From NCBI GenBank assembly GCA_012295275.1, contig CM022674.1, forward strand, positions 16,120,001-16,184,000: a DNA stretch of 64,000 nt, written 5' to 3'. Position 1 is the first letter of the stretch; the number at the start of each line of letters is the position of its first letter. The notes under the pieces were generated by a model. The model was given only the letters and a program-made list of their open reading frames with translations. It was not told the DNA's origin and searched no databases. Positions 8,334 to 51,930 of this stretch are shown here, one piece after another. The DNA comes from Chrysomallon squamiferum. Lineage: Eukaryota; Animalia; Mollusca. The translations under genes and the position numbers were made by a program.

Positions 8334-9578
8334 GCTTTACTGAATGAGTTCATCTGTAGAAGTGAAGAATCTGTGGACAAAAATGTTTAAAAATGTTTAT
8401 TTAAAAACAAGCATATGTTTACAAGTTTAATATTCTATCTGCACCTACATTTACCCACACACTCAGTAGTAAATTCGTGTCATGATCTGCACAGACAGAT
8501 ATGTAGATGTAGAGACAGATAGATAAACTAATCAATAAATAAATAGGTAGACACAGAGACAGAGAGATTGATATCTCAAACTAGTAAATAAACTGTCCTG
8601 ATATATCAAAGTTTTGAAACCTGTACACTGTAAATGTTATTTCTTAAATACAGCACTGTTCTAAATTGCAACTATAATAATTATTACACAAATATTTCTT
8701 TTTGTTTTTCTTTGTTTTAAATATTTCTTTTCATTTACTATATATACACACATCAGATGATCTGGACAACCGAATACATTAGAACCTTTGACTGCATGAA
8801 CTAAAACAGTCTTAAAAGAAATAAATAGAAACATTAAAATTTGTTCTAAGATATAAAACTGCACAGCTTCATAATTTATTCTTCAAATTTTAATATAAAC
8901 TGGTTAGTTTTGAATATTTGAACTGACAGCAGCCAGACTGTGGGATCCACCTATTGTTTTACCATCTTCCTGTTGTTAATTTATGTAGTCATTTTGTTAT
9001 CCAAAGAGGAATATAATTAATTACAGCTGACAGGTAAAACACAAATTTAACAACTTTGAAGGAACATGGTCTGTTGTTAGACATAAATTATCAAATATAA
9101 CCAGCATTTATTCAGTTAAACATCTCAGAATTTTGAGTTTTCTTCTTCTCGCAGTTGTTTCCTAAGCAGAGACAGCTCAGTGCGTTGTTATTTAATTTAC
9201 GTGTAAATTACATGTTTTCATCAAAGCCTGGTATCATCTACTTTACAGATTAAATATTTTGTCATTGTATTGTAAATTAATACAACCTCAGCAATATACA
9301 GGTTACTTAAACTTTATTCAGTTTTTAACTAAATTTATAAATATGTACAGCTATATACAAATGCATACACGCAAACACAAGTGTAAATATAATGAAAAGA
9401 ATTCTAAGATGTTTCTAACTCAGATTATGTAACAATTTATTTTATTAATTAGTTTTCTGTCACACCACATTTTACTTTTACAACTAATTTTTTAATAATA
9501 ATAATAAGTAAATAATCAATAAATAATATAATTGTAATTAATTGATATTTTGTACACACACATATAACTATTATTAAT

Positions 9579-10069: not shown

Positions 10070-11333
10070 CACTTGGAAGTCGAAACTATTGACACATTTT
10101 GCCTCTATTTTGTCCAAAGATGACTTGAATACGTTTTGCAGTCGGGCACCGAAATTATATTTAGTAATAAAACTGCAAGAATAGCTGCTGACATGCTTTG
10201 TTTTTGTGTTAACAGCAATTGACAATAAACACAGCTATTGACTTTTATTTTTTTTTTTTTTTTTTTATTATTATTATTATTTTTTTTTTTTTGTTGTACA
10301 AATTGAATTAACTGAGATGGACTGAACAGAATGACATGGTAAAGATTAGAATTAAGAAACCCAGTAAGTAGAGGTGGAGACGAGAGAAAGTAGGATACCA
10401 GTAGTATTAAACAAACATAAGAACAAAACTTTTCTTAAATCATTTTATCACTTATGCCATGAATGTGTATAAAATATGTTGTTAAAGTCCCTGTTTTACT
10501 AGATACAGAACATGTATACATGTAGATATTTAATTTTACCTTTGTGACAAATGCTTGGTTATGTCTTATTGTCTCATTTTGCTTTGACAAAGTGTCACTT
10601 ATCTGTCTACAGACAGAAGTGACTTCTCCCTGTTTTTCCAGCCTATCGTGAACTCTGCACAGCTAAATCTTTCTCTGTACACAGTGGATTTGTTGGAAAA
10701 TCTTCTATTAATTTTGTTTTAGAAAGTTCGTTCTGTGATTGCGACCAATTCAATAAGACAGTGAAAAATGTGCGTCATACGTATTTTATGCAGATTTCTG
10801 CTTCTGACTCTAAATGAGTGTTTCAACACTAATAATAATCTTGTTCATTTGGCTCAATATAGTAACTACACGATGTATGTAATTATCATTTGTTAAGCTT
10901 TCAAAGAATGGCAATTATTTAATATCACATGGTAACCTAATTACGTGAAAACTGCCGTCAGTTTTTTCAGAAGTGATCGTCCTTGCAAAATTGTTGACTA
11001 AACTAAGTATTATATAAGTTGTCTTTCCTTTTTTTTTTTAATTCTGGAATTTACACCCGAAGTCCGAAGTGTACAATGAAATGATTTGATTATCATAAAC
11101 TATAGGAAACAATACAGAGAAGAATGCATTACAGATATATTATAACAAAAACAAATTTAAATGCATATCCGAATTAGACACTATTTTTTCCATAACAGAT
11201 TAACGATAGCTGGAGAGGAATTTCACAAATTATATATGCTGATGATGATAATGATGATGATGGTGATGATGATGATGATGATGATGCTGATGATGATGGT
11301 GTTTTACAGGAGAAGGAAATAAAACAAACTCAC

Positions 11334-11547
11334 CCAGTTTCGGCTGGACTATTTTATCTCCTACTTTACTCGGGTGGATGATGTCTCGTTTAGAAAGCGA
11401 GTTCAGATCAAAGCCGTGATTCTGTCCTGAGTGGCTTCTCTTCGACTCGACAGTCTCCACATCTGAGTCAGACACCTGCACAGACTGGGCCAACGCTAAT
11501 AGCAGACAAAGAAACGCTAAGACAAAATGAAGACCGAGTCCCTTCAT
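11334..11547 (-). CDS. First coding exon of a secreted precursor with two dibasic KR sites; remainder not identified
   Basis: MKGLGLHFVLAFLCLLLALAQS is a classic signal peptide, followed by VQVSDSDVETVESKR SHSGQNHGFDLNSLSKR DIIHPSKVGDKIVQPKL. Phase-1 donor GTGAGT at 11333-11328; locally higher GC. Confidence 0.65.
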
Positions 11548-11781
11548 CTTTCTCGTCTCCGTCCGAATGATGGTGACGATGATGCTGTTGGGGTTTAAAT
11601 AGAGAAAGAAACAGGACGTTTTGAAACAAATGTCACCACTTCTCACTCGATTTCAACTGTGAACCTACCACCAACTAATTAGATTTACAGTTTCTTGTGA
11701 ATAGTAATTTATCTTTTGATATTATCATAATCGTTGTTGTTTTCTGGACGTCCGCTGGCTGTTAGTTGTAATAAAACACAC

Positions 11782-24039: not shown

Positions 24040-25106
24040 ATGAGTTCGCTAATCATTAGTTTTGTCGTCTTTATTCTGATTAATTCTCCTGAATCTGCCG
24101 TTTCTAATGTCTATGTAGCTGTCCCGTTTATACAGATAGGCTCATGTAAACTGGTTATAAGTACAAGAGACATAACTGATTTGAAAAGTTTACAACGCAG
24201 TGATGGCTTGCCGAGGTAATGCATGCAGATTTTTGTAATGTATACGAATTTTTATAAATGCTGCTTCTTATTTTTGTTATGCAAGCACATCTAAATTAAG
24301 TTAACTACAGTGGGGTTCTTTTTGTAAGGAATAAAAAGAGGATTATTTCTTAAAAATAAATTGAATAAATAAATATATGCATTTTAAAGATAAATATGAA
24401 GAAGAAAAATAAATAGCTAAATAAATAAATCATAACAAAATTAAAATGAATTTTGACTGAAATTATTAATTTGTATTCTAATATATTATTTAAAAGTGAA
24501 TATGCTTATTCTTCAAAACTGTTTTGTAACTGGTCTTACAGTCAAAACCACTAACACAAACACTAACTTTACCATGTACTGTTAAACCACAACCACAAGA
24601 ACATTATTACTTTGACTACCAACACTGCTATCACTGGTAACATTTAACCATGGATTATCATCTGCACCATCATCTATTATTATAATCATTATCATCAGCA
24701 GCAGCATTATTATTCTGATCAAGATAATCATCATAATTATCATCTTCATCATCAACTTTATCATTCTCAGCAATATTGTGGTTTTAACAGCAGATAATAA
24801 AATAGGATTTTACTATTTACAATTTCAATTTTTGTTGTTGTTTATTGTGGTTATTATGTTTCATATTTCACACTTCACCAATTCTTTTCTTTACCATGAC
24901 CTGTCAAGGTATTATTTTTTTGGTAATCACTCAAACATTTCAAATTTAAAAAAAAAAGAAAAAGAAATAAAAAAGTATATGTATATATAAATGAAAATGT
25001 GTTGAAGATTATTTGTAAAGTAACTGTGAGAAAATATCTTCAATGTATTTTGTGTAGATCTATTTCTTAATATGTTTTTATTTATTATGAAATGAGCTAC
25101 AAACTT

Positions 25107-25183
<77 letters not shown>

Positions 25184-25243
25184 ATTAGCCTTGACAAATA
25201 GTTTAAGTTCTCTCTCTTATTTAATTAGCCTTGACAAATAGTT

Positions 25244-25331
<88 letters not shown>

Positions 25332-27480
25332 CTTTTTGTTTTCATCTCTGTTATTTCTCTCTTTCTCTATCATTTGCTACCCCGTATATTACTCTATCTC
25401 ATTCTCTATCACTCTATTTCTATATCTCTGACATTTTTTCTGTTTCTCATTCTCCATCAGTATTTCTTTTTCCCTGTTTATACCTATCTTTCTTTCTCCC
25501 TTTCACTGTCTGTCTTTCACTTACTCACATTTTTGCTCTCTGTTTCTATAATTATTAATTAATGTTTAACTGTCAGCTACAAAATGTTTCATCTCTTTTT
25601 CATTGTTTTTTAAATATTTTTTTTTTATCAGGTATGTAAGTTCGACTTCAAAGAACAGAAACAATATTTTACTCTTGGATTGCAGAACTACGCCAAGTTC
25701 CGAGCCATTCGAGATAAGTACTTACACACTTCATATTTATCAGTGGATCATTATTTGTATTTAGTAATTGGAAATATACAGCAACGTTTCTTAAATTTCA
25801 TTTTAGGTTTTATGCATATAAGAATTTGTTTTTATTCATGTATGTACAGTTACATTTAGAAATTATAATAAGATCAGTAATGATGATGATGATAATTAAA
25901 AAAACAAGAAATAATAATCATGCTGTTACTGGTACATTAGTAATAATAATAATAACAATAATAATAAAAACAATAATAATAATAAGAAGAAGAAGAATAA
26001 GAATAAAAGAAAATGGTTTTATTGAAAGTATGTTAAAATTTTAATTGATATATCTAAATATATTTCTTTTGAAGATTACAAGTAGCAAAAAGCTGAAATT
26101 TTTAAGTAAACAAATTTGTTCTTAATGCCGATAGGTACATGCAGATTGCATGTAGATAAATATTTGAATTTATTTTCACTAGATTTATAAGCATGTACAA
26201 ACTTCATTATTATGTACAATGAAAAAACTATTTGTTTTTACTGAATACAGATACAGACACATTTTCTGTTCATAAAATTAAAAACAAAAATAAAATTATG
26301 AATTTTATAAACAGTTCAGTATTTATAATCCGAATTAATTATTTTTGTTGCATACAGATCTGTCTATTTTTCATGTTAACAAATATTGAAATTTGTTTTT
26401 GCTTGATATATGTAGATGTAAATCTCATATTTCTAAACAAAACAATGTTTCAGTTGTATTTGAATTAAGAAACATTTATTCACTATATTCATAAATTAAT
26501 TATTAGAATTTATTGTTACTGAATATACAGGTAAAAATACTCTTATATTTGTGAATATTTGAATTTATGGTCTTTCAGATTGCTATATGTGCTAATTTAA
26601 TATTTGCTTTTAATGTATATAAATACTTGCAGATATCATTTTTAAATAATAAGAATTGATTTTTAATGTGTACATGCTTGATTTATAAATATATATAAAA
26701 AATAGTTTTATTCCATCTGATAGATACTGGTCTTATATTTATAAGCATAACAACATACTTTTATTTTCAGGGTATATAATTTACAAAATTTCATATTTAT
26801 AAACATTGGTGACACACACACACAAAAACACAAAAATAGAAGCATCAAAAGTAACATTTAAACAAAAATGACTTTGATATAAATAAAAAGAATAATATTT
26901 AATTTATTTATATATTTCTTTAAATAATATTTTTCTTTTTTTTTTTAGATAAGTGCAACAAAGGAAAACAATAATTAAGTTAATTTGTGATGCAACGAGA
27001 AAAGAACCTGATGATGGTTTGTTTAAAATTATTGAAGATTCTGGTGTTGGAAATGCGGTATGTAATTTTAAATGTAAAATTTGGGAAGTTCATATGAAGT
27101 ATTTTAAAAACAGTGTTAATATTAAACATCAAAAATAATAATTGTAAATTTTGGAATTTGAAAACAGGAATAAGTGGCACTCTTTGTAAGGTTAGTAATT
27201 TTAAAATACGGGATTTTAAAAATGTGCATTCATTAGGTAGTATAAACTAAAATACATTTTTTCTTTTTCTGAACTTTTTTTGCTTCACATGCAAGCTTTG
27301 TTGAAAATATAATAATTTTCTGTCCATTTCTTCATGCTTTGTTGCTGTATTCATTATTTTTTTTAATTTATTATTTTACTGGATGCATTTTTTAAATATA
27401 TTTATTTATTTGTTTATAGACAGCAGAACTTCATCACCTCTGCTGTTGTCCAAATGGCTGTTTGCCTGTCAATATTTCAG
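24040..27480 (+). CDS. Signal peptide and MRH/ATG27-like ectodomain exons
   Basis: MSSLIISFVVFILINSPESAVS leader; GSCKLVISTRDITDLKSLQRSDGLPR; VCKFDFKEQKQYFTLGLQNYAKF; RKTIIKLICD..DGLFKIIED; TAELHHLCCCPNGC. Order and spacing follow the MRH-like pattern DLxxL..CQ..LG..RxTxIxLxCD..ELx3CxCP. Confidence 0.6.
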
Positions 27481-27491
27481 GTAAATGTATT

Positions 27492-27526
<35 letters not shown>

Positions 27527-28695
27527 TATAATAATAATAATCATAATAAATATACTACCACTTCTATTACTACTACTACTAGAGAAAACCAACAAAAAAT
27601 AAAAAATGTCCTGCTCAAGCAAACATAAAGAGAAAAGAAAAGAAAGAAAGAAAGAAAAGAACAAATCTATAAAAAAAACTCAGAAAAGAAAAGAAAAAAG
27701 ATATCTTCTAGACAGGACATGAACACATAACTTTCAATATCTTGGAGTACATTTGTAGAAAAATATTTTCTAAATGAAACACTTGAATAATAGCTGAACA
27801 ACTCATCACATATAACTAAAATGATTATTGTTGCTGTTGGTGTTGTTGTTGTTATTGTTATTGTAGTTTTGTAATTTGCAGAGTTCTTTTCAAGTCTGCC
27901 ATTAATCACATTTCACCAATTTGAAGAAAACTTCAATACAGTTAATTTGAATATTTTTAAAGTTTTAGTAAAATAAAAAGAATAATAATAAAAAATAAAA
28001 TAAAAAAAGAGTTAAAAAAACAACAAATAAAAAAACAAAAAAACAATACAAACATACGCAAACAACAACAACAATAAAGCAATTAACTGTTTTATTTTTA
28101 CTGATGTTCTAATCGAATGATGATGAATTTTAAGTTGTCTCCATAACTAACCTATTTACCTAGTAACACAGTTATTTATACAAATAATATTATAACACTT
28201 GGTACATCACACAACACTCTCATTAAACCTCACTGCAGAGTTATATTTCTTTACACCTTATTATGTAGCTTACAGTGCACACTATACAGAGTAATCGTTT
28301 ATATTCAGTATGTAGATAACAAGTTTAGATAATTATTTAATAGTGTCAGTAATGTTATCTTAATCTAGTGTATTAGTTACACACTCATAACAACATAATT
28401 GTGAATACTTTTACCTCAGCTTAAAGTGCAAATGGGGTAATTGTACATTAAATGAATTACCTGGTGTTGATGTATTTTAAAAAGAAATGTATGTGTGTGT
28501 TTGTATTAAATAAAATCTATATCTATCTATCTGTCTATCTGCCTGTCTATCTATATATTTGCCTAGCTATTTGTCTCTTAGTACACAGATATACATATAT
28601 ATTTGTGTTTTTCTATCTTTGTATCTATCTATATAGAGACACAGATGTAGATTGTTTTTGTATATATATATATATATAAACTATATATATATGTA

Positions 28696-28758
<63 letters not shown>

Positions 28759-30548
28759 ATATTTAAAAATAAATTCTGTAGCATTGTTTGATTCACAGAA
28801 ATGTAAGAACCCACATATAAGTTGATGCTTGAATGTTATCAGTGATTTATGCATTGTTATAGTTTACTTTACATACTTAACCTACATAACTGATCAGCAA
28901 ATAACTAGACAATTTTTCATATCCTCAGTCTGTTAGGAATTTTTCTGCTTTCTTCAAAGTAAAAATAATGGAAGATATTGAGCTTTGTATTTTAAAATGT
29001 GTAAATTATGTGATTTGAAGAATAAAAAAATGTAAGTAGAAATATGATTGTACAAAATTTGTTTTTAGAATTTATATCAGTTGTTATAGAGATATCTTTT
29101 GTTAGAAATGTAAAACATACAATATATTCTGAAATTTTAGGTTAGACGTTTTAGAATATAAATTTAGAGTTTGTCAGATAACAAGCATGACTGTAGCAGC
29201 AAATTATTATTTTTTTTAAATATACTAATGAGACTGCCATGTAATTAGTAATTAATTAATAATTTAAATAAATTTTACAAGACTGTTGGATGACAAGCAT
29301 CAGTGTAACTGCACAATACACTAATGAGAATGCCATCTAGTTAACAGTACTTGATAATTTAAATTTTGTGCAGAAAGGACAGAAAACCACAAGAGCAGTG
29401 ATATGTTTATTAAGTTTGGTGCTACTCTTAGCTTCTTGTTCATGGCGTTAATTATCAGATTCTTGTGTTACCTCAGTAGAACACACCTACCATTCTACTA
29501 CAAACTTCCAGGTGAGATTTTCGGAGTTCTGCATTTAAAATATTCATTTAGTGACACAAAGAACTGTTCTAAATAGAGTCTGTATTCTTCTGAGTTACAT
29601 TTTGTAATTATATCTGGCTTCCAATCTTTATTAATAATAAAGTTTAACAAATGTACCTTCGTTTTACATTTAATTTTGGTTTTGTAGCTTCCAATCTTAA
29701 TTAATAATAAAGTAGATTAAAAAATAGAATGCAATTTAAAAGTACCTGATCACCAACATTTTTCTATGGTTGCGACATCATTATATATATATATATATAT
29801 ATAAAAGTGTTTAAGAAGTCACATATTTGCTGTTTCAGTTACTGGAAAAATGAGAGGGTTTTCACACCATTCCCCCAATGATGACATTTATGACAGACGC
29901 CTAACAGCCCCATCACTGATGTCTGTTAGGTACCGGGATTATGAACCAGGATCGAAAGTGTCCAAGAAAAGTCAGCTGCCTGTTTTAGAGAATGCTGTTA
30001 TGTCTATTGACACGATTAAAATGAGACAGAGGTGAGCTACTGCCATGGTGAATTTACAAATGCAGATATAGGATTCGTATTTTTATTTCTTTTCTTTTTT
30101 TAATTATGTTTTTACATACATACATATATTTTATTTATATTTATTAATTAGATTTTTAAGGAAACGTTTTTACATTAAAATTGTAGATTAGTCAAGATTT
30201 TCTCACAATCAAATTTTGATCATGCCTTTGCACCATTTTCAACTTGAAAGCATGAAAGCATAGTACATTCCTTAAGAATGAAAAACATATCTTTATGATG
30301 TCACACATATCTTTATGATGTCATACTTGTCATGATTCAGACTGGGAGGTGGCAGTTTTGGAGACACTCATGTAGCAGAATGGCACGACATGACTGTGGC
30401 ACTGAAACGATTAACAATTAATATCCATGACAACCAGGTGACTGATGACATCATAGAGCTGATGAAGAAAGAAGTTTGGTTTCTCAGGTGAGAGAATAAA
30501 AAAGGGAGAGATATGAATAGAGAGAGAGATATGAATAGAGACAGATGT

Positions 30549-30628
<80 letters not shown>

Positions 30629-32776
30629 ACTACATAATAACTTTCAAAATTAATAATAACTTCAAAAAGGAATTAATATTCAAAAAGATTCTTTCCCTTG
30701 CTTCATACAATTAACTTAGATTTGTTTTCTCTTTTAGTCGCCAACGTCATAAAAACATCGTTGGGGTGCTGGGACTGTGCACTGATGGCAGACATCCATG
30801 TATCATCACTGAATTTGTGAATGGCAGCTGCATAAAAGATCTTCTTAAAATGAGAGACTTCAAGCTAATATGGCCGCATCGAGTCAAAATTGTACGTCTG
30901 CAAAATAATAAAAATGTATGTCTAGCACCAGGAATAATTAATTTAAAGTCATTTTTCGAAAATCTAAATAATTGTTTATTCACTACCTAAGCTTAAGTCT
31001 ATGAAATGAATGTTTAAATAGAGCTGATAACTCTTTGCTAATAATAAAGTATAAAAGAAGCTGCAATGATGATTTTTTTTTTCTACAAAGAGATATACAA
31101 AATAGGTTTTGCCATTTTACAGTGATTTATGTAATCTTCTAAAAACAAATTTATCACTGCCTTGACAAATATTATTATTATTTTTTGTTATGCTTTATAA
31201 CTAACAAATACTGTTTTAAAAATAAATCACAATAAAACAGTAACAGATTTTTCTTCCAATAATCCTGATTTATCAGTGATTTATAACAGGTTTCTAAAAC
31301 TTTTCTGACAGCAGGTTGCAAAATATTACAGTTGTTAACAAGTCAGTGATATTTTACACAGAATTGAACTTCAGAACTAAAGACAGCTTTTGTTGGCTGA
31401 ACACAAAGGTTGTTGAATGTGGCTGTGTTAAATCAAATGTTTGCTGTTTTATTTTGCAGTGTTCTGATGTAGCTAATGGCATAGCCTTTCTTCATTCGAC
31501 AAAACCTCCGATCATTCATCGAGATCTCCGCTGTGGAAACCTCTTTCTTCTCCACAATGATACTGCTAAGGTACCAAAACTAATTATTGTTATTATTATT
31601 ATTATTATTATTATTTTTTTTTTTTTTTAATCCTGGTTGTTTAAAGATACAGCTACGGTATTGAAATTAATTTTTTTTTTTTATTCTCAATTATTTGAAG
31701 ATAAAGAATCAATAAACACTAACACATTTTAGTTGTTAGACAGAAGGATGTGTAGACTAGAGGTAAAGCTCTCATATGGAATGCATTAATGACTGGTCCC
31801 TGTTAGTAGTAACTCTTTTGGGGGCATTTTCCCAATCCAACCAATTCTGTTTCCAGGTCAGACAGTGCTCTGTTATTGTTGGATCATAGGCCAAGTAGTT
31901 TTAGTGAAAGTGCAGATAAAAGATCCCTCGTAATTTATTTCCAGCAATTAAATAAAATAAAATAAAATTTTATAAAATTTCAGGTTGCTGATTTTGGACT
32001 GACAAAAATGATACAGCCACTAAGACAGAACTGTACAAAGGAAGACTGCTGCTGTGAGTTTTACCCACAATTACTTGAAACAAAAATGGCAGACATTATT
32101 GTTATGAACAAGAGTCAGTAACTGAACAATAAATAGAAATTATTGAATTTGTATCAGTCTGTTCCCATTTCTGTGAGAAAAACATGGATCTAGAAGACCA
32201 AGATTTTATTTCAAAAGGAAAATAAACTTTTAACTTGGTATTGGTGAATCTTTATGTGAATATTTTAATGCAAAATGAGAGATTTAATATAAAAATAAAA
32301 ATCTTATACATATAATGATTATTTATATAAAGTACTTATAATGATAATAAATAAATAAATAAATAAATAAAGAAAGAAAAAATTAAATAAAGAAAATATA
32401 TTTTTATACTTTACCCATAATGCCTTTTAAGAACTATGGTAGACAATATTATGAGTTTTTCTTGGCAGAGTTATCTCCCATTATCAAAGCTGTAGACTGA
32501 TATAAAACCATTTAAAATGTTCTGTTGTTAATATGTTCTAGTAGTTTATTAATATAACTGAATAAGGGTACATATTTGAGCATTAATGTTTGTAAGTATA
32601 AATATGAGATTATAACTGCATATGTTAATGTATGTATAGTTTTTGTATACATGTGTATGTGTATATGTGAGTGTGTGTGTGTGTATATATATGTGTGTGT
32701 GACTGTCCATTTATGTTTAAGTAGGTGTGTATGTGTTTATATGTATGTGTGTGTATGTGTGTATGTGTGTGTGGAC

Positions 32777-32807
<31 letters not shown>

Positions 32808-33477
32808 GTCTGTTTCCATTTCTTTATGGAAAACATGGAAGTAGAACATATGTGTCTGTGTATGTACGTATGTATATAATCTTAAAATATTCATTTAAAA
32901 ATAACAATAAAAGAAACATAAAATTTAATCTCAACAGCTATTAAGTTTTAGAATAGTTACTAAATGGATTGTACAAAGACACAAGTAACTTTACAGGTCG
33001 TCGTAACTACAGTGCATGTCCAGCCAACATTTGCTGGACAGCTCCAGAAATACTGCAGAACCCCACTGTACTCGAGGATGACGCAGTGATCACAACGGCA
33101 GCCGATGTTTACTCGTTTGGACTTGTAATGTGGGAGCTGTTTGTCTGTGAAGACCCATTTGAAGACATTGTCACAGAGGAAGAGGTAATTTGATGTGATT
33201 TTTGTGTGTGTGTGTCACTGTGTGTGTGATGATGTGTGTGTGTGTGTGTGTGGTGTGTGTGTGTGTGTATGTGTGTGTGTGTGTGTTAAGACCTGTTTGA
33301 AGAGATCGCCACAGAGGAAGGGGTAGTTTGATGTGATTTGTTTGTGTATATGTTTGTGTGTTTGAGTTTGTGTGTGTGTGTGTGTGTGTGTGTTTTTTGT
33401 GTGTTTGTGTGTTTGAGTGTGGATGTGTTTGGAAGGAGGAAGAGGTAATTTGATACAATTTGTTGTTTGTGTGTGTT

Positions 33478-33563
<86 letters not shown>

Positions 33564-34605
33564 GTGTGTTTGTTTGTGTGTGTGTTAAGACCAGTTTGAA
33601 GATACCACCACATAGCAAGATGTAGTGTGATACAATCTGTTATTTGTGTGTGTATTTGTGTATATATGCTTGAGTGTGCATGTGTGTATTTATGTGTGCA
33701 ATATATGTGTGGGTGTTAATGTGTCTGCATGTATCTGTGTACAAATGTATTTGAGTTGATATATTAATATATTTCTCTGTAAAGGTACTTATATTAGTAT
33801 CCAAATGCACGTATAAATAAGTTTATTTACATGCACTTGTTTCTGTGTGTGTGTGAATTCAAGCCGTCTGTGTGTGTGTGTGTGTGCTTGTGAGCGTTGG
33901 TGTACAAACACACATTAGTATGTACACACCTGTGATATGTTGATGTGTGTGTTAAACAACAGCAGTGTGTTTACAGGTGATAGAGCTGGTGAATCGTGGA
34001 AGCAGGCCGCGGCTGAACAGTGTAACAAACATGATGCCGCAGTACAAAGATCTCATGCAGAGTTGCTGGTCACAGCACTCAAAGGACAGGCCAACCATTA
34101 AAAAGGTGAGTGATCTCCCCTTAACAGCCCTCCAAGAAAAAAAAAAAAAAAAAAAAAACCCAAAACATCTAATATTAATTACAATTTAAATATGACTAAG
34201 AATAATTGCTCCATCAAAAAAACAAAACAGAACGAAACAAAGCTATATATATCTGTACCTCTCTGTGTATCTTTCTCCCTCTCTAATTAATTAAATAAAT
34301 AAATCAATTAAAAAAAAAAAAAAAATATAGACAAAAATGAAACAAAACAAAGACATTAGAATTAAACAAATGATATATTAATAAATAAAAGTTGTTACTG
34401 TACAAATGATGGGCGATATCACACTGCAATCATTTGCCAGTAACTAACAGTTATAATATACTTAAATATCTACGTAAATGTCATACACAAAATAACCTGC
34501 CACTATTTCTTCCCTTTTTATTTACAGGTTGTTCAGACCTTGAAGAATGTACAAAATCAGTCTGGATCATTTCAGAAAATAATTGACAGAAAAATTGAAG
34601 CGTGA
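24040..34605 (+). CDS. Single-pass receptor protein kinase (TKL/TK-like) with M6P-receptor/ATG27-like ectodomain; whole gene model
   Basis: Exons: 24040-24215, 25632-~25717, 26949 or 26954-27057, 27420-27480, 29374-29511, 29839-30031, 30341-30487, 30738-30891, 31460-31570, 31984-32053, 32997-33184, 33977-34105, 34528-34605 (TGA). From 26954 to the stop every junction is GT-AG and in frame; the first two junctions are unresolved. Confidence 0.75.
29374..30031 (+). CDS. Transmembrane and juxtamembrane exons of the receptor kinase
   Basis: Exon 29374-29511 (phase 1-1) contains MFIKFGATLSFLFMALIIRFLCYL. Exon 29839-30031 (phase 1-2) reads VTGKMRG..DIYDRR..YRDYEPG..IKMRQR and leads straight into kinase subdomain I. 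Confidence 0.8.
30341..34605 (+). CDS. Protein kinase domain (7 exons), catalytic residues intact
   Basis: LGGGSFG, VALK, KKEV (alphaC Glu), HKNIV, ITEFV, PPIIHRDLRCGN, KVADFG, WTAPE, DVYSFG..WEL, SCW..DRP. All exon lengths and phases checked consistent. Confidence 0.95.
33151..33640 (+). repeat. Tandem partial copies of a kinase exon 3' end and donor, separated by (GT)n
   Basis: aagacccatttgaagacattgtcacagaggaagaggtaatttgatgtgattt (33151) recurs in diverged form at ~33288, ~33432 (partial) and ~33587. Confidence 0.8.
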
Positions 34606-37981: not shown

Positions 37982-38019
<38 letters not shown>

Positions 38020-38509
38020 CACACACACACACATTTACTATAATAACACATTTACTTTTCTTCCTACTACTGTGCCCGTTTGTTTATTCCACGTAAAAGT
38101 GTTTCAGTAGATAACACGCAATTTTTTTTTTTTTTTTTATGCCTTCTTAATTTAATTAGAAAAACCCTTACATATGATAGAGTTAAAAGTAAATTTAAAA
38201 TATTTATTTCATATCAGTTTTACTTTTGAGGTACAACAGTATTATAATTTTATTCAACATTGTTGATAACCCACCCATTATGTTTTTGACTTTATCCTCA
38301 AATCATCTTTCAGAAACATGACAGACTCACAAAACTGACTGACATTTTAACCAGCTCTCAGTGATAATGCATTCAGCTAAACCAGTGACCTAGAACAAAC
38401 TGCTTTTTAGAAGAAAGTACATAAAGAAGATGAAACTTGAGAGATGGATGTGTTAGTCACGTGAAATATATTCTGAATGTAGGTAAAACAAATTGTACCA
38501 GAACATCAA

Positions 38510-38617
<108 letters not shown>

Positions 38618-39975
38618 AAAACAGTGTCTATTAGTAGTACTCTGAAATCTAAACAAAGTAGTAAATTTAAAATATTTATTTCATATGAGTTTTACTTTTG
38701 AAATACAGTAGTGTTATAAATGTATTCAACATTGTTGATAATCCACCCAATATCTTTCTGACTTTAACCTGAAATAAGCTTTCAGAAACATGACACCCTC
38801 ATTTTCGCCAAGTCACAGTGATAATGTATTAGCTAAACCAGTGATTCAGCTAAACCAATGTTTGATTCACAGAGCTGGTTCTTGTTGGTTCTTTATTTAT
38901 TTCACAGTATACAATCAATTCGTATTTTTATGTTATTGTTTCAAATTTTGTCAGGATGCGATGGCGAATGATTTGGGTCACTACTGCTGGTAAGGAAAAA
39001 AATGTCTCAAATGGTTTAATGGTATTTATCATCGATAACTGTGTTCCGAATCTCGGATGATTTGCGATTTTAAAATCATAAAAATGGCCATCTGATTTAT
39101 TTTTCCAAAAAATATTTAGTTTCCAGTAGCTTTTTATCCAATGTGTTATAAAGAATGTCTGCTTTAGAAAAAAGTGTTATTATTTTAATTTTACTTTTAT
39201 TCTTCAGTTATTTTTTCTTCAGTTAATTTTTTTGGCAGTTTTCCTTAAAATGTTTGTTTTTTGTTGATGTTTTTTTAAATATAATTTTAACAGACAGTAT
39301 AATAACACATTTACTTTTCTTCCTACGACTGTGCCCGTGTGTTCATTCTACTTTAAAGTGTTTCAGCAGATTAGACGTAAGATTTTAATTTTTTTACTTA
39401 AGGCTACTTAATTTAATTCGAAAAACCCTTTACTATGGGAGAAGTAAAAGTAAATTTAAAATATTTATTTCAAATCAGTTTTACTTTAGAAGTACAGTAC
39501 TATTATAATTTTATTCAACATTGTTGATATTCCACACAATATCTTTCTGACTTTAACCTGAAATAAGCTTTCAGAAACATGACACTCTTCGGAAATTGAA
39601 TGACATTTTCGCCAAGTCACAGTGATAATGAATTATCTAAACCAGTGACCTAAAACAAACTGCCCTTAGTACATAGTTCACAGTATACAATCAATTCGTA
39701 TTTTTATCTTATTTCATGAAATGTGATCAAGATGCTGCAAACATGCTAATTGTATTCTTTACCTCGTTAAACACGGTCATCTCGGCGTTGTATCGCTAAA
39801 GTGTCATGGCGGACCAAAATTCCTGTCCTCTGACTTATATTTGAGTATGGATGATATTGGCTTTCTTTATTCACTTCTTTGTGTTAGTTTATTTATTTAT
39901 TCATTATTTATTATTTATTTATTTATTTATTTTACTTTTATTCTTCAGTTAATTTTTGTGACGGTTTTGATTAAA

Positions 39976-40016
<41 letters not shown>

Positions 40017-40494
40017 AACAGTCAATATAATAACAGATTTACGTTTCTTCCTACTACTGTGCCCGTTTGATAATTCCACCTTAAGGTGTTTCAGAAGATT
40101 AGATGTAAAATTTGTATTTTATTACATAGGCCTACTTTATTTAATTATAACAAATCTTAGAGATAAGAGAAGTAAAAGTAATTTTAAATATTTATTTCAT
40201 ATCAGTTTTGATTTTGAAATACAGTACTATTATAATTTTATTCATCATTGTTGATAATCCACCAGTATCTTTCTGACTTTAACCTGAAATCAGGTTTCAG
40301 AAACATGACACACTCAGAAAACTGACTGACATTTCAACAATGTCACAGTGATAAGGTATTCAGCTAAACCAGTGACCTAGAACAAACCGTCTTGATAAGA
40401 AACTACATAAAGAAGATGAAACTTGAGAGATAGATCTGTTAGTCACGTGAATTTTATTCTGAATGCAGGTAAAAAAATTGTACCAGAACATCAA

Positions 40495-40590
<96 letters not shown>

Positions 40591-40919
40591 ACAGTGTCTG
40601 CCCGGAGCACTCTGAAAGCTACACAAAGTAGCTCATTGCTGGGTGATTAACAGAGCGAGGAGGTGGCGAATAAATTGTGTCACTTCTGCTCGTAAGGAAA
40701 ACTTATACTGTATTGTTTTTTGTAGTTTCTGTTGGTTCTTTATTTATTTCACAGTATACAATTCGTATTTTTAATCTGATTGTTCGAAATTTAATCAAGA
40801 TGCTCCAAACATGCTAATTGTATTCTTTACCTCGTGAAACACGGTCGTCTCGGCGATGTATCGCTAAAGTGTCATGGCGGACCAAAATTCCTGTTATATG
40901 ACTTGTGTTTGAGCAAAAC

Positions 40920-41280
40920 TTTTGCAAATTATGATCAGACTCATTATAAACTTTAAGTAATACTCGCCCTAACTGTAACTCTGATATTGACCCTAGCTCA
41001 AACTTATAAACCTAATCCTACCCAAGTCCAAACATTAAATCTTACCCTAACGCTACTTTTAATCACGACCCTCCCTTTTTTTACGCATTATCATAACACT
41101 CATAATAAAATTTAAATAACCCTAACCCTAACCGTAATCCTAACCCTGAATCTATCCCTAACTCTAAACCTAACCCTAACGAAGTCATTAAACTTAATTC
41201 TAATGCAATAATTTTGCACATTAAATAACCCCTGCTGTAATCCTAACCCTAACCCTAACCCAGCCTCTATCCCTAATATA
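40920..41280 (+). repeat. Degenerate telomere-like (CCCTAA)-rich block
   Basis: taaccctaaccctaaccgtaatcctaaccc variants, with spacer sequences shared with the 54890-56510 block. Confidence 0.8.
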
Positions 41281-42509
41281 CTTTGGCATTTTAGTTTTGG
41301 TAAGTGGCGTTCTAAAATATTTTATTATGATAAAGTGTCACAGCAAGTTTTCATTTATGATTGTTATGCACTCAAGAAGTTTATATTTTCATTTTCAGTA
41401 TATCATATTAATAAAATGTATTTGATTGGTTGTGTATGTCACATGATCGTAGGATTATCGTTGAAGGCTTTTATGTTGGGACTAATAACTGGGAAATTAA
41501 TTAATATTCTAGTATGAACAGTTGAACCTCTACCAGTTGCTTTGTTTAAACTTAAGTAAGTATTTTAATGAAAACGGATCTCTGTCTCATTATTAACAGT
41601 TTAACTTAGTGAAGTCAACTACAAATAAATAGATAAAAGATACACCTTCATTTCACAAGCAAAAAAAGGTATGACAGAGTATGTTTATTTGTTCACGATG
41701 CAATTCATAAATTCTTCTCAATGGTTTTTATACAAGAGTAAACTGTGTAATAACTGGGAAGATCTTTGCATTCTGGGTAAAAGACGTAATTACCACTTCA
41801 CGGATACCATAGAAACTTATCGAGTTTTAATACATTAACCGTGGATCAGTGGTTAGAATGGAAGAATATCAATTACGACAGCGATATGGAGCTACGAAAA
41901 AGAATAAAATAAAAAGAAATATGTAGGCAAACCGCCTGTTAATAATCATCTTTTCTTTTCCTTCATTATTTAGCACGAAAAAGTCTCTTAGATATGGTAA
42001 TTTTTCTGACAGTTTTGCTTAAAATGTTTATTTTTTATATATATAATTTTAACTGTCAATATAATAACACATTGACCTTTCTGCCTACTAGTGTGCCCGT
42101 TTGTGTATTCCTCTTTAAAGTGTTTCAGTACATTAGACGTCAATTTGTTTATATTTTTACACTTAGGTCTACTTAATTTAATTCGAAAAATATTTATTTC
42201 ATATCAATGTTACTTTTGAAGTATAGTAGTATTGTAATTTTATTGAGCCTTGTTGATAATCCACTTATTATGTTTCTGACTTTAACCCGAAATCAGCATT
42301 CAGAAACATGATACACTTACAAAACTCACTGATATTTTAACCGAGTCTCAGTGATAAAGTATTCAGATAAAACAGTGACCTAGAACAAACTGTTTTCAGA
42401 ACAATGTACATAAACAAGATTAAACTTGAGAGGTCGGCGTGTTAGCCACGTGAATTATATTCCGAATGTAGTTAAAAAAATTGTACCAGAAAATCAAAAT
42501 AACAATAAC

Positions 42510-42621
<112 letters not shown>

Positions 42622-43627
42622 ACAGTGTCTATTAGTAGTACTCTGAAATCTAAACAAAGTAGTAAATTTAAAATATTTATTTCATATCAGTTTTACTTTT
42701 GAAATACAGTAGTGTTATAAATTTATTCAACATTGTTGATAATCCACACAATATCTTTCTGACTTTAACCTGAAATAAGCTTTCAGAAACATGACACCCT
42801 CATTTTCGCCAAGTCACAGTGATAATGTATTAGCTAAACCAGTGATTCACAGAGCGAGGAGATGGCGAATGATTTGGGTCACTACTGCTGGTAAGGAAAA
42901 CTTATACTATATTGTTTTTTGTAGTTTCTGTTGGTTCTTTATTTATTTCACAGTATACAATCAATTCATATTTTTATCTTATTGTTTGACATTTTATCAA
43001 GATGCTGCAAACATGCTAATTGTATTATTTACCTCGTGAAACACGGTCATCTCGACGATGTATCGCAAAAGTGTCATGGCGGACATACGATTCCTGTTAT
43101 ATGACTCATGACAAATATATGACAAATATTTCCCAAATGATTTAATGGAATTTATCATCGATAATTGTGTCTCGAATCTCGGATGATTTGCGATTTTAAA
43201 ATCATAAAAATGGCCATCTGATTTATTTTTCCCAAAAATATTTAGTTTCCAGTTGCTCTTTATCCAATGTGTTATAAAGAATGTCTGCTTGATGGAGAAA
43301 AATAGTGTTATTGCGCGAAGATAGGAAGTTAATTAGTTAATTATTACAGAAAATACACCTACTTTAATTATTAGTTTTGAGTTATTTCCCTTATTTTGTT
43401 TTTTTTTTCTATAAGTCCTTGATCCCTCTCTTTGCATTCTATAAATACATCAATTGCAATTTGTATGTATTATCGAGTAAAAATGATAAAGTAATGCAAG
43501 ATCTCTGTATGACTGGTACAGATTATTTTATTACATAAGTTATTTCCATTGTACCATGACTATATCTAATCAGTCAAGAAGGCACTTTGATCTTATAAAT
43601 TGTCACTCTCCATCTATCTATCTATCC

Positions 43628-43774
<147 letters not shown>

Positions 43775-45298
43775 TATATACGCATATATATACATATATT
43801 AAGATTAAAGTGACAGCGTCATACAAATGTACATACACACACAGACAGACACACACACAATACACTGTGTTATGTGTACAGTGTGGCATCGTTTAAAGAA
43901 CGTGGCAAACATTTAATAACATTATCCGGTGTGAGAGACTGGACTCCTTAATATTAGGAAGGTCAGGACGGTTATCTACATTTTACATTATTGGACGTTG
44001 GTTTAGATGTAATAGCAAATATATATGTTATACAGAGACAAACGCATTATTGCTAGCTGGATTATTTTTTCCAAAAATAACTTGGTAATGATTGAATTAA
44101 AATGTATTCCCAAATTTGTATTTATTTTATTTTATTATTTTTTTTAAATACATTAAACCTTGTTAATGAAATGATTATTTTCTGGACTGTTTGAAACGCA
44201 TCAAAAGCTGAGTCCACATACAAGCCATAGAGGAAAGGGTACAATCATCCATTCAGGCAGGTTTTTTTCTCACTGCAATCGTGTAATAAACTAGTTTAAA
44301 ACTTACATCGAAATCAGTGTTGTCAGTGTCAAGTGAAAAATCATTTCATATTTTCTAAGCTATGCTATGTCACCTGTCATACTAATTATGACGGTTGTTC
44401 TTAAAGTTGCTAATTAATTAAAGCTGGTCACTCAAAATGTACTTGACCTAATAACTAATTGCATAAATCTGACGGTTTTGATAATAAAGTGTCAGGATAT
44501 TTTTTAAACAATGACAGAATGTTTTGTATTTTTCCTTGTTTTATTATTACAATTATTAGATATGCATTTGATTTTAATTCATGGAGCATTTATCCTATAG
44601 TGCATTTCTGCTGGTGGATTTTGTCAGCCTGTGCACTGCGAGATTGGGAGGGCACATGTCCGTATCCAGTTTCTATGACGTTCTTTCTTTCTTTATTAAC
44701 TTATTTGTGTTTATTTATTTATTTATTATTTATTTATTGATTTTACTTTTATTCTTCAGTTAATTTTTTTGGGCAGTTTTCCTTAAAATATTTGTTTTTG
44801 TTGTTGTTTTTTTAAATATAATTTTAACAGGCAGTATAATAACACATTTACTTTTCTTCCTACTACTGTGCCCGTGTGTTCATTCTACTTTAAAGTGTTT
44901 CAGCAGATTAGACGTCAGATTTTAATTTTTTTACTTAAGCCTACTTAATTTAATTCGAAAAACCCTTACTTATGGGAGAAGTAAAAGTAAATTTGAAATA
45001 TTTATTTCATATCAGTTTTACTTTAGAAGTACAGTACTATTATAATTTTATTCAACATTGTTGATAATCCACCCAATATCTTTCTGACTTTAACCTGAAA
45101 TAAGCTTTCAGAAACATGACACTCTTCGGAAATTGAATGACATTTTCGCCAAGTCACAGTGATAATGAATTATCTAAACCAGTGACCTAAAACAAACTGC
45201 CCTTAGTACATAAATACGATTAAACTTGAGAGATGGGCGTGTTAGTCATGTGACTTTTATTCTGAATATAGGTAACAAAATCTGTACCAGAATATCAA

Positions 45299-45367
<69 letters not shown>

Positions 45368-46314
45368 AATAAATAATAAATAAACAGTGTCTGCCCAGAG
45401 TACTCTGAAAGCTACACAGAGTAGCTCACTGCTGGGTGATTAACAGAGCTAGGAGATGGCGAATAAGTTGTGTCACTTCTGCTGGTAAGGAAAACTTAAA
45501 CTATATCGTTTTTTGTAGTTTCTGTTGGTTCTTTATTTATTTCACAGTATACAATCAATTCATATTTTTATCTGATTGTATGAAATGTTATCAAGATGCT
45601 GCAAACATGCTAATGGTATTCTTTACCTCGTGAAACACGGTGATCTCGGCGATGTATCGCTAAAGTGTCATGGCGGACATACAATTCCTGTTGTATGACG
45701 TGTTTGAGTATGGATTATATTAGATTATTTTTCTTAAATTACTTAAGAATCATAGAAAGAATATTTCCGAAATGATTTAATGGTATTTATCATCGATAAC
45801 TGTGTCTCGAATCTCGAATTATTTGCGATTTTAAAATGAAAAAAATGGCCATCTGATTTATTTTATAAAAAATATTTAGTTTCCAGTAGCTCTTTAACCA
45901 ATGTGTTATAAAGAATGTATGCTTGATGGAGAAAAATACTGTTATTGCGCGAAGTTAGGAAGTTAATTAGTTAATTATTATAGAAAATACACCTACTTTA
46001 ATTATTAGTTTTCAGTTATTTCCCTTATATTTTCTTGTTTCAATAAGTCCTTGATCCCTCTCTTTGCATTCTATGAGGATATACATTGTAATTAATTTAT
46101 ATCATCGAGTAAGAATGATAAAGTAAGACAAGGTCTCTGTACGACTGGTACAAATAATGTTATTACACCAGTCATTTGGGTTGTAGCATGACTATACTTA
46201 ATCCGTCAAGTAGTCACTTTGATCTTATACGTTTTCACTGTCTTTATATATATATATATATATATATATGTTTCTATCTATCTATTTATCAATCTATGAA
46301 CGTATGCATATATA

Positions 46315-46367
<53 letters not shown>

Positions 46368-48056
46368 ACATACACACATACATTAATAAGATTGTAGTGA
46401 CAACGTCATACAAATTTACATTCACACACAGACAGACACACAAACAATACACTGTGTTATGTGTACAGTGTGGCATCGTTTCAATAACGTAGCAAACATT
46501 TAATAACATTATCCGGTGTGAGAGACTGGACTCCTTAACATTAGGAAGGTTAGGTCTGTTGTCTACATTTTTCATTATTGGACGCTGGTTTAGATGTAAC
46601 CACAAAAATATATGTACAACAGACAGATAAAGAAATATAGCTCAACAGCGCAAACAAAAACTAAAGATACAGAAAGAACGTGACTAAACAAACGTCAGGT
46701 AGGCCCCTTAGATAAACCATTAGCTTCTATAATCTGTTTTGTAGTTCAAAGGAATCTGTGCATTTTAGAAAAAATTCCTGTATTGAGCGCATTATTGCCA
46801 GCTCGGTGATTTATTCCAAGACTAACTTGTTAAGGACTGAATTAAAATATATTACCCAATTTGTTTTATTTTCTTATTTTTTTGTTTTTTATTATAATTT
46901 TTTTAAATATATTAAACCTAGTTAAAGAAGCGATTAGTTTCTGGCTGTTTGAAACGCATCAAAGGCTGAGTCCACATGCAAGCCAAAGAGGAAAGGGTAC
47001 AATCATCCATTCATGGAGGTTTTTTTCTCACTGGAAACGTGTAATAAATTAATTTAAAACTTACATCGAAATCAGTGTTGTCAGTGTCAAGTGAAAAATC
47101 ATTCATATTGTCCAAGCTATGCTATGTCACCTGACATACTAATTATGTGGATTATTTTTAAAGTTATTCATTCATTAAAGCTCGTCACACCCAATTTACT
47201 TGACCTAATAAATAACTGCATAAATCCCACAATTAACAATAAAGTGAAAGGCAATTTTTTAAACAATGACTGAATGTTATGTCTGTTTTTCCTTTTGTAA
47301 TTATTATAATTATCAGATATACATTTTATTTTAATTCGTGGAGCATTTATCCTATCTTGCATTTCTGTTTGTGGATTTTTCCGCCTATGCACTTTATTAT
47401 TGGGGGGGGGGGCGGCATATGTCCGTGTCCAGATTCTACTTCGTTCTTTCTTTCTTTATTCACTTCTTTGTGTTTGTATATTTATTTCATATTTATTTAT
47501 TTATTTTACTTTTATTCTTCAGTTAATTTTTGTGACGGTTTTGATTAAAATGTGTTTTTGTTTTTAAATATAATTTTAACAGTCAGTATAATAACACATT
47601 TACTTTTCTTCCTACTACTGTGCCCGTTTGTTCATTCCACTTTAAAGTGTTTCAGCAGATTAGACGTCAGATTTTTATTTTTTTACTTAGGCCTACTTAA
47701 TTTAATTAAAAAACCCTTACACATGAGAGAATTAAAAGTAAATTTAAAATATTTATTTCATATCAGTTTTACTTTTGAGGTATAGCAGTATTATAATTTT
47801 ATTCAATATTGTTGATAATCCGCCCAGTATCTTTCTGACTTTAACCTGAAATCATATTTCAGAAACATGACACACTTAGAAAACTGACCGATATTGTAGC
47901 CAACTCTCAGTGATAATGCATTCAGCTAAACCAGTGACGTAGAACAAACCGTCTTTATAAGAAAGTACATAAAGAAGATGAAACCTGAGAGATAGATCTG
48001 TTAGTCACGTGAAATATATTCCGAATGTAGGTAAAAAAATTGTACCAGAACATCAA

Positions 48057-48131
<75 letters not shown>

Positions 48132-49825
48132 AATAAATAAATAAATAAACAGTGTCTGCACGGAGTACTCTGAAAGCTAAACAAAGTAGCTCATTGTGGG
48201 GTGATTAACAGAGCGAGGAGATGGCGAATAAGTTGTGTCACTTCTGCTGGTAAGTAAAACTTATACTATATTGTTTTTTGTAGTTTCTGATGGTTCTTTA
48301 TTTATTTCACAGCGTACAATCAATTCATTCTTTTTTATATTATTGCCTTTGAAAGTTTATCAAGATGCTGCAAACATGCTGATTGTATTTATTATTTATT
48401 TATTTATTTTACTTTTATTCTTCACTTAATTTTTGTGACGGTTTTGATTTAAAAAGTAATTAAATATAATTTTTACACTCACTATAATAACATTTTGACT
48501 TTTCTTCCTACTACTGTGCCCGTTTGTTCATTCGACTTTAAAGTTTTTCAGTAGACTAGATCTCAAATTTTTAGTTTTTTACTGAGGCCTATTTTTTCTC
48601 TAAGGCGTACTTAATTTATTTCGAAAATCCCTTACTCGTGAGAGAAGTAAAAGTAAATTTAAAATATTTATTTCATATCAGTTTTAATTTTGAAGTACAG
48701 TAGTTTTATACTTTTATTCAACATTGTTGATAATCCTTCCAGTATCTTTCTGACTTTAACCTGAAACAAGCTTTCAGAAACATGACACACTCAGAAAAAT
48801 GACTGACATTTCAACAATGTCACATTGATAATGTATTCAGTTAAACAAGTGACCTAGAACAAACTTCCCTTAGAAAGTACAAAAGATTAAACTTGAGATT
48901 CGGGCGTTTTAGTCATGTTACTTTTATTCTGAACATAGGTAACAACTTGTACCAGAACATCAAAATAATAATAATAATAATAATAGTAAAAAACATAAAC
49001 AAATAAACAGTGTCTGCTCGGAGTACTCTGAAAACGACACAAAGTAGCTTCTTGCTGGGTGATTCACAGAGCGAGGAGATGGCGAATAAGTTGTGTCACT
49101 TCTGCTGGTAAAGAAAACTTACACTATATTGTTTTTTTGTAGTTTCTGTTGGTTATATATACAGTCAATTCGTATTTTTATCTTGTTTGAACTTTTATCA
49201 AGATGCTGCAAACATACTAATTGTATTCTTTACCTCGTGAAACAGGGTCATCTCGGCGATGTATCGCTAAAGTGTCATGGCGGACCAACATTCCTGTTAT
49301 ATGACTTGTGCTTGAGGATGGATTATATTGGCTTATTTTTCTTAAATTACTTACATCTTACTTAAGAATTACAGAAAAAGATTTTCCAAATGATGTAATT
49401 GTATTTATCATCGATAATTGTGTCCCGAATCTCGCTTTATTTGCGATTTTAAAATCATAAAAATGGTCATCTGATTTATTTTTCCAAAAAATATTTAGTT
49501 TCCATTAGCTCTTTATCCAAACTGTTGTAAAGAATGTATGCTTGATGGAAGTTAATTAGTTAATTATTACAGAAAATACACCTAGTTTAATTATTATTTT
49601 TGAGTTATTTCCCTTATATTTTGTGTTTTCTATAAGTCATTGATCCCTGTCTCTGCATTCTATAAGTATATGAATTGTAATTTGTGTATATTATTGAGTA
49701 AAAATGATAAAGTAATACAAGGTCTCTGTATGACTGGTACAAATTATTTTATTACTCCAGTCATTTCGATTGTACTTGACAATACTTAATCAGACAAGTA
49801 GTCACCATGATCTTATAAATTGTCA

Positions 49826-49969
<144 letters not shown>

Positions 49970-50851: not shown

Positions 50852-50882
<31 letters not shown>

Positions 50883-51301: not shown

Positions 51302-51356
<55 letters not shown>

Positions 51357-51883: not shown

Positions 51884-51925
<42 letters not shown>

Positions 51926-51930
51926 ACAAC

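Follow-up and report, generated by a model that had tools for sequence, protein, structure and literature searches.

A gastropod gene of a mollusc-annelid membrane-kinase family with a predicted MRH-fold ectodomain

Animal receptor kinases carry ectodomains from a short and well-studied list, and MRH domains (mannose 6-phosphate receptor homology) are known as non-catalytic modules of sorting and quality control. One MRH domain followed by one transmembrane (TM) helix and a YXX-phi motif has been described as the ancestral layout of mannose 6-phosphate receptors (MPRs) in a study whose main text contains neither 'kinase' nor 'mollus' (10.64898/2026.10.22.760878). MRH lectins grip mannose by Gln, Arg, Glu and Tyr (PMC9388126; 10.64898/2026.10.22.760878), a QREY tetrad needed for sugar binding (PMC9388126). 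In CI-MPR sugar is bound by domains 3, 5, 9 and 15 only, while domain 11 binds the protein IGF2 (PMC7481795). Here we describe a gene at positions 24040 to 34605 of a 64,000-nucleotide stretch of Chrysomallon squamiferum DNA (GCA_012295275.1, contig CM022674.1, positions 16,120,001 to 16,184,000 of the forward strand; the whole stretch is called the window and numbered from its first letter). The gene belongs to a family in which an ectodomain predicted to have the MRH fold is joined to a kinase. No description of an MRH-kinase architecture turned up among the papers listed by literature searches, whose coverage was thin for subscription journals and did not extend to bioRxiv supplements. The kinome of the oyster, whose family member is UniRef K1S285, has been sorted by kinase domain, with five TK-unique (tyrosine kinase) and four TKL-unique (tyrosine-kinase-like) entries, and 'mannose' does not occur in the main text of that study (PMC4883820).

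The exon chain, its family and the predicted ectodomain fold

The window consists of AT-rich, microsatellite-laden animal DNA without runs of N. From position 26954 to a stop codon at 34603-34605, eleven exons with canonical AG/GT ends splice into a single frame of 456 residues with no internal stop, as an earlier note made from the letters of the DNA had claimed. The product comprises the end of the ectodomain (the last MRH strands and a Cys cluster), a TM segment, a juxtamembrane part with the motifs YYKL and RDYEP and a full kinase with Gly loop, VALK, HRDLRCGN, DFG and WTAPE, so that the TM segment, juxtamembrane tyrosine and complete kinase announced in that note are all present. Pfam PK_Tyr_Ser-Thr was matched singly by four of the five kinase exons scanned. 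The window thus holds a real gene of a membrane-kinase family that occurs in molluscs and an annelid.

A word search with exon 30738-30891 gave no match. HMMER with one kinase exon found full-length relatives in Solemya, Lottia, Physella, Octopus, Aplysia, Tegillarca and the annelid Owenia. A ten-member profile then retrieved 147 proteins at E<=1e-20, among which 48 scored 545-934 bits (eight of these had been in the query alignment of the profile) and the next 275. Together with P0151 and Owenia P0055 these 48 make up a family of 50 proteins from gastropods, bivalves, cephalopods, a chiton and Owenia. An N/D-P-C motif is found in 40 and an N-terminal hydrophobic stretch in 36 of them, the rest being mostly truncated gene models. 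Babylonia has two copies and the other species one each, as seen. A search from Owenia P0055 at E<=1e-60 recovered only itself and one mollusc protein, and the range outside the molluscs is therefore poorly sampled; about two dozen exon fragments and the 774-residue protein P0078 (ectodomain match probability 92%) resemble the Owenia type.

In a quick tree of 43 kinase domains, the 24 family rows form one clade (SH-aLRT 100, stem 0.89) whose branching tracks the mollusc groups. The clade has no supported sister among the 19 outside kinases, which were left of an initial 20 once P0238 had been removed for its shortness and which include no animal Raf or receptor tyrosine kinase (RTK) sequence. 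In this tree the sister of the window gene is that of Gigantopelta aegis, nested within the gastropods, with 73% identity in the tree alignment and a branch of 0.23 for the window gene vs 0.11 for its sister; over residues 3-456 its product is 61% identical to the Gigantopelta protein. It is the gastropod orthologue in an apparently unnamed mollusc-annelid kinase family. Family members bear unrelated database names (FGFR3-like, Ror, EphA3-like, drkC, PERK5, TMK2), and Pfam sees the kinase alone in all 48 family matches. The ectodomain modules of the RTK families used as labels (FGFR, Ror, Eph, PTK7) are lacking, as Pfam found no Ig, Frizzled/kringle, ephrin-binding or FN3 module in the 12 relatives rescanned. 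The family does not correspond to any named family of receptor kinases, in line with the earlier suggestion of an undescribed one.

That the ectodomain and the kinase are on one mRNA in the relatives is evident from 13 full-length members located on Logan contigs of 1982-3862 bases, four of which extend beyond the coding sequence by just 122-207 bases. Contigs of this size have no room for a gene with a dozen introns, which measures 10.5 kb in the window, and are therefore spliced transcripts. The joining of the two parts, as earlier proposed, is thereby confirmed for the relatives.

The ectodomain of the family is predicted to adopt the MRH fold. An AlphaFold2 model of a relative, the ectodomain of Haliotis P0162, was computed with 40 sequences and is nearly all-beta (pLDDT 93.6). 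Foldseek gave 34 matches to it at E<=0.001, and among the matches listed all are CI-MPR/IGF2R, CD-MPR, ELAPOR1 or XTP3B. With VIA-align (48,161 chains) the top 21 rows are all MRH domains, the best at Z 14.7 with a root-mean-square deviation (rmsd) of 2.4 over 132 residues, and the first unrelated chain follows at Z 4.2; CD-MPR scores 11.5, and Yos9, GNPTG, OS-9 and glucosidase II beta score 7.2-8.4. CIMR clusters, with family shares of 35% and 11%, were also indicated by ESM Atlas features at 0.92. The family also has the six or more cysteines of MRH domains: in a 40-row ectodomain alignment, which leaves out P0007, P0010, P0017, P0025, P0026, P0039, P0146, P0169, P0186 and P0188 as truncated, redundant or bearing model insertions, Cys is conserved at model positions 9, 52, 70, 76, 131 and 165 in 39-40 members and at 163 and 169 in 34. 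The MRH-like ectodomain of the earlier note thus finds support for the family, through the P0162 model and the MRH matches among the listed rows.

Several results speak against this assignment. The model was made for Haliotis P0162 and not for the window product. The Pfam profiles CIMR, ATG27, Man-6-P_recep and PRKCSH matched none of 15 ectodomains at E<=5 and none of 12 relatives at E<=0.1, so that the link to Pfam families expected earlier did not materialize, nor did any ectodomain exon of the window copy match the MRH families of Pfam. A PDB sequence search with a 15-member ectodomain profile gave no match. With a single ectodomain it gave one chance match (E 0.61) and no MRH chain, and a whole-protein search of the ESM Atlas returned generic kinases only. 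Sequence profiles do not detect the fold, which is why annotation has missed it.

The ectodomain of the Chrysomallon copy

The earlier note had also listed a signal peptide and Cys-containing ectodomain exons for the window gene. All four motifs it quoted are present, and of the 4389 segments into which the window divides in six frames they are the four that match the family ectodomain profile best; exon 24040-24215 opens with a hydrophobic, signal-peptide-like stretch according to crude hydropathy. The motifs do not, however, lie in one reading frame, because exon 1 ends in phase 2, the frame of the VCK exon at 25632 opens in phase 0 and exon 26954 requires phase 1 (Table 1).

Two lesions underlie the clash. 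The exon that relatives carry between exon 1 and the VCK exon (median 41 residues, model residues 34-75; here the N-P-C exon) is absent from the six frames of the window, where its profile scores 6.0 bits at best vs 45-78.5 in the 39 members from which it was built, and the conserved cysteines at model positions 52 and 70 are lacking. Downstream, TAA occupies 26950-26952 behind the phase-fitting acceptor at 26947-26948, at a codon that is Ser in 36 of 40 relatives, and a second AG acceptor lies five bases beyond the first. With a conserved exon absent and TAA at 26950, the window copy has no complete MRH domain in one frame, and the intact ectodomain assumed in the earlier note is contradicted for this copy as sequenced. 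No exon in 24260-25600 combines phases 2-to-0 with family similarity, and a mini-exon at 26771-26808, considered as a replacement, scores like shuffles.

The missing exon must measure a multiple of three plus one base and the acceptor shift deletes five bases; the two lesions therefore cancel in frame. Exon 1, 25632-25756 and the chain from 26954 onward together give 557 codons without stop (544 with the donor at 25717). Judged from its sequence, the 557-residue product would keep signal peptide, TM helix and kinase but would be without the barrel core, and so without a foldable MRH domain. Other parts have drifted as well. The VCK exon keeps the phase of its relatives and 42 codons (41-48 in 39 of 40 members), and its 3' half scores under all 40 members in every frame tried, the lowest-scoring member being that of Gigantopelta; the two shifted frames of this half, also considered as replacements, score like shuffles. 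Lys and Arg occur within the TM helix, whose hydrophobicity is below that of 49 of 50 relatives (the remaining one was mis-scanned).

At the site where the VCK exon has drifted, the 41-48 residues of 39 relatives are replaced in the Gigantopelta aegis model P0177 by a Ser/Thr-rich segment of 77 residues, which may reflect shared decay or an annotation error.

We give slightly less than an even chance to a real loss of the N-P-C exon that was compensated by the 5-base acceptor shift, with the 557-residue frame kept. The cancelling lesions, the charged and less hydrophobic TM helix and the longer kinase branch are cues for it. Other observations detract from it. The VCK frame remains family-like (score 43.3, above 9 of 40 members) although the shifted open reading frame would read another frame; 37% of synonymous recodings likewise leave the shifted frame free of stops, so that its being open proves little; all 15 relative-rate tests are non-significant (p 0.057-1.0); and long (CT)n microsatellites fill part of the intron that lacks the exon.

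The same microsatellite tracts would fit a gene that is intact in the animal, its N-P-C exon having been lost and the codon at 26950 miscalled in the assembly. Such an error would also account for the conservation of exon 1, the VCK half-exon and exon 26954 as in relatives, for the phase and length kept by the VCK exon and for the normal conservation of the kinase, in which the window departs from 3 of 77 conserved columns (0-15 in 46 other members). It takes two independent mistakes that happen to cancel in frame, however, leaves the drift of the VCK exon 3' half and the TM helix to be explained and finds no N runs in the window; we regard it as somewhat unlikely. It is likewise conceivable, if unlikely, that the copy is a recent pseudogene without a working protein. 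The missing exon, the in-frame TAA, the charged TM helix, the longer branch and a Cys that replaces Arg, Ala, Gly or Ser just before W-T-A-P-E would agree with decay, but eleven consecutive exons have retained an open frame and canonical splice sites, the catalytic residues are intact and the rate tests give no signal.

Table 1. Features of the Chrysomallon squamiferum gene in window coordinates
Position	Strand	Feature	Family score
24040..24215	+	Exon 1 with start codon, signal-peptide-like segment and the first MRH strands; phase 2 at its end	40.6, above 10 of 39 members; shuffles at most 11.4
24216..25631	+	Intron where relatives carry an exon of about 41 residues with two conserved Cys and the motifs N-P-C and G-D-x-C; no trace of this exon in the window; long (CT)n tracts	
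25632..25756	+	VCK..YFTLG exon: 5' half family-like in the VCK frame, 3' half lower than all 40 members whichever frame was tried; uncertain donor at 25717, 25756 or 25763	
26949..26953	+	Site where the phase-2 exon of relatives starts; in-frame TAA 26950-26952 where relatives have Ser; second AG 26952-26953	
26954..27057	+	Exon: MRH strands in which Arg, Cys, Phe and Asp are conserved	59.8, above 37 of 40 members
27420..27480	+	Exon with the Cys cluster (ELHHLCCCPNGC) and the last MRH strand	
29374..29511	+	Exon: YxKL motif and TM helix, the helix with Lys and Arg and of lower hydrophobicity than in relatives	
29839..30031	+	Exon: juxtamembrane segment, conserved RDYEP tyrosine	
30341..30487	+	Kinase exon with Gly loop, beta-3 Lys and alpha-C Glu	
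30738..30891	+	Kinase exon: subdomains IV-V	
31460..31570	+	Kinase exon with the catalytic loop (HRDLRCGN)	
31984..32053	+	Kinase exon with DFG and the Cys-rich activation segment	
32997..33184	+	Kinase exon with WTAPE and with subdomain IX	
33977..34105	+	Kinase exon: subdomains X-XI	
34528..34605	+	Final coding exon with the stop codon	

The 3' end of exon 32997-33184 recurs as two short degenerate copies at 33287-33325 and 33587-33625 in the next intron, among (GT)n tracts. Elsewhere in the window, an exon for an immunoglobulin domain (Pfam Ig_2, E 8.6e-7) at 2059-2436 on the minus strand belongs to a neighbouring gene. Also on the minus strand, 7782-8336 and 11233-11652 are open for 185 and 140 codons without Pfam match; in the second of these, a signal-peptide-like stretch together with Lys-Arg sites suggests that it encodes a secreted precursor. 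In the region 38000-58000 some 9-12 diverged units of 2-3 kb stand in tandem, with short ORF-like pieces that recur on the minus strand; these may be an old tandem duplication or a gene with repeated exons.

Ligand pocket, sorting motif and kinase of the family

The QREY sites were assigned in the family alignment through predicted strands and an assumed spacing from the conserved cysteines, not through residue-level superposition. With this mapping the Gln site holds Lys in 37 of 40 members, the Arg site Lys in 19 and Arg in 12, and the Glu site Asp in 38; the Tyr site is Val, Ile, Leu or Met in 37 and never Tyr, and the full tetrad occurs in none of the 40. The mapping is soft, since a Tyr stands one column further in 13 of the 40 members, and this counts against a replaced tetrad. 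Glu158 and His161 are nearly invariant in the family. Pocket sites that are conserved but altered, next to these two residues, suggest that the pocket is retained for another ligand. On this mapping the tetrad appears to be replaced, which makes a sensing of mannose 6-phosphate doubtful from the sequence. The earlier note had raised the idea of an undescribed glycan- or lysosomal-enzyme-sensing receptor kinase family; the family is apparently undescribed, whereas the sensing part is weakened by the apparent lack of the tetrad.

It is improbable that intact members sense lysosomal enzymes tagged with mannose 6-phosphate, even though the predicted fold is nearest to CI-MPR and CD-MPR domains, YXX-phi is kept and Arg/Lys and Asp are retained at two pocket positions. 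Lys at the Gln site, Asp at the Glu site, an aliphatic residue at the Tyr site and the absence of a full tetrad stand against a tetrad described as required for sugar binding (PMC9388126), and CI-MPR domains 8 and 11-14, which are among the top structural matches, lie outside the four carbohydrate-binding domains (PMC7481795).

Right after the TM helix the family has a Y-x-K-[LVI] motif, with Y in 49, K in 46 and Leu, Val or Ile in 48 of the 50 members, and it is present in the window copy too; further downstream the Tyr of D-Y-E-P is found in 43 of 50. The family therefore shares a YXX-phi signal with P-type lectins, in which a YXX-phi or dileucine motif follows the TM helix, and departs from their short non-catalytic tail by a complete kinase. 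In this kinase, 50 of 50 members have the DFG Asp and, in the catalytic loop, His, Arg, Asp, Arg, Cys and Asn. The window copy has all residues of an active kinase, which in the family are kept as K in 40, E in 42, D in 50, N in 50, DFG-D in 50 and APE-E in 50 of 50.

By sequence the closest solved kinases are BRAF, CTR1 and TNNI3K (E ~1e-33). By fold CRAF is nearest (Z 31.9, rmsd 2.9 over 279), and ACK1, HCK and CTR1 are found at Z 27.7. In the catalytic loop all 50 members have Arg for the Lys of BRAF, and Arg at this position is a tyrosine-kinase-like trait. The residue seven before the APE Glu is Ser or Thr in 42 of 50, as in BRAF, and Asn in the window copy and in Gigantopelta. This mixed signature makes us lean towards dual specificity. 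Four Cys of the activation segment, which is ordered in the kinase model, are present in 48-50 of 50 members and one Cys of the catalytic loop in all 50.

An active kinase throughout the family is called into question by ten of the 50 members, all bivalve, in which the beta-3 Lys is replaced by Thr or Ser with an adjoining Arg; judged by these positions they may be pseudokinases or have shifted the catalytic residue. It is nevertheless improbable that the family as a whole serves as a cargo or sorting receptor with the kinase domain as a scaffold or weak pseudokinase, as could be argued from the MPR-like topology with YXX-phi, the lost beta-3 Lys and a third Gly of the Gly loop missing in 15 of 50, because catalytic Asp, Asn and DFG Asp are retained in every member and the Lys in most, the window copy included.

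Proposed origin and function, and comparison with known systems

We hold it rather probable that the window gene is an orthologue in a family of MRH-fold kinases of MPR-type origin and that the ectodomain of this copy is broken in the sequence as it stands. The family would have arisen when a one-domain protein of the mannose 6-phosphate receptor type gained a Raf-like kinase tail behind its sorting motif. In intact members the MRH domain would bind a glycoprotein or protein ligand other than mannose 6-phosphate, given a pocket whose positions are conserved yet altered. By means of the YxKL motif the receptor would probably cycle between the surface and endosomes or the Golgi. Pairing driven by the ligand would switch on the kinase, probably one of dual specificity, which would then phosphorylate the conserved juxtamembrane tyrosine and so create a docking site. 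The Cys-rich activation segment may add control by metal or redox state, which is a guess. The window copy would have undergone a real and recent loss of the N-P-C exon together with the 5-base acceptor shift, leaving a membrane-anchored kinase without a foldable MRH domain.

A family member would thus behave as a lectin-fold receptor kinase and as neither a mannose 6-phosphate receptor nor a named RTK; we infer its ligand and mechanism. If this holds true, a mostly single-copy MRH-kinase family in all sampled mollusc classes and an annelid, hidden by wrong names, would constitute a new signalling input of lophotrochozoans. Intact members exist in oyster, Biomphalaria, Lymnaea, Aplysia and Octopus, and the window copy represents the family poorly; should its lesions be real, it would exemplify a frame-compensated loss of the sensing domain of a receptor. 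A bolder extension, which we consider distinctly unlikely, would be an overlooked ancient mollusc-annelid receptor kinase derived from a lysosomal sorting receptor, signalling from the lumen of endosomes or Golgi through a re-tuned pocket and a metal- or redox-controlled kinase, and turned in one snail lineage into a ligand-independent, headless kinase by compensated exon loss.

Among described proteins, CD-MPR and other P-type lectins with a single MRH domain, as well as ATG27-like proteins, share one MRH domain, one TM helix and YXX-phi with the family, whose predicted fold superimposes on CD-MPR with an rmsd of 3.1 over 130 residues at Z 11.5. The family differs from the CD-MPR type by the full kinase after the sorting motif, the apparently replaced QREY tetrad and the lack of a Pfam MRH match. 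Domains of CI-MPR/IGF2R and ELAPOR1 are the top structural matches (Z 14.7-12.1; ELAPOR1 11.3), and IGF2 on CI-MPR domain 11 provides a precedent for a non-sugar ligand on the MRH fold (PMC7481795), but these proteins have ectodomains of several domains and no catalytic tail. Kinases of the Raf-type TKL group (BRAF/CRAF, CTR1, TNNI3K) are nearest to the kinase in sequence and fold and share, as seen in BRAF, the Ser/Thr before APE; unlike the family they are cytosolic, and the family is set apart by a catalytic-loop Arg in place of the BRAF Lys and by its Cys-rich activation segment.

Venus kinase receptors come closest as a precedent in concept: they, too, are invertebrate receptor kinases in which the ectodomain of another receptor class has been fused to a kinase (PMC3703292). 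The likeness is one of analogy only, as they combine a Venus flytrap ectodomain with an insulin-receptor-like kinase, while the family has a beta-barrel ectodomain of some 165 residues without match to ANF_receptor. CrRLK1L/FERONIA and LecRK of plants offer a further analogy, and again only that: in them as well a lectin fold of the secretory pathway has been reused as the ectodomain of a receptor kinase, and they differ from the MRH kinases in fold, kinase group and kingdom.

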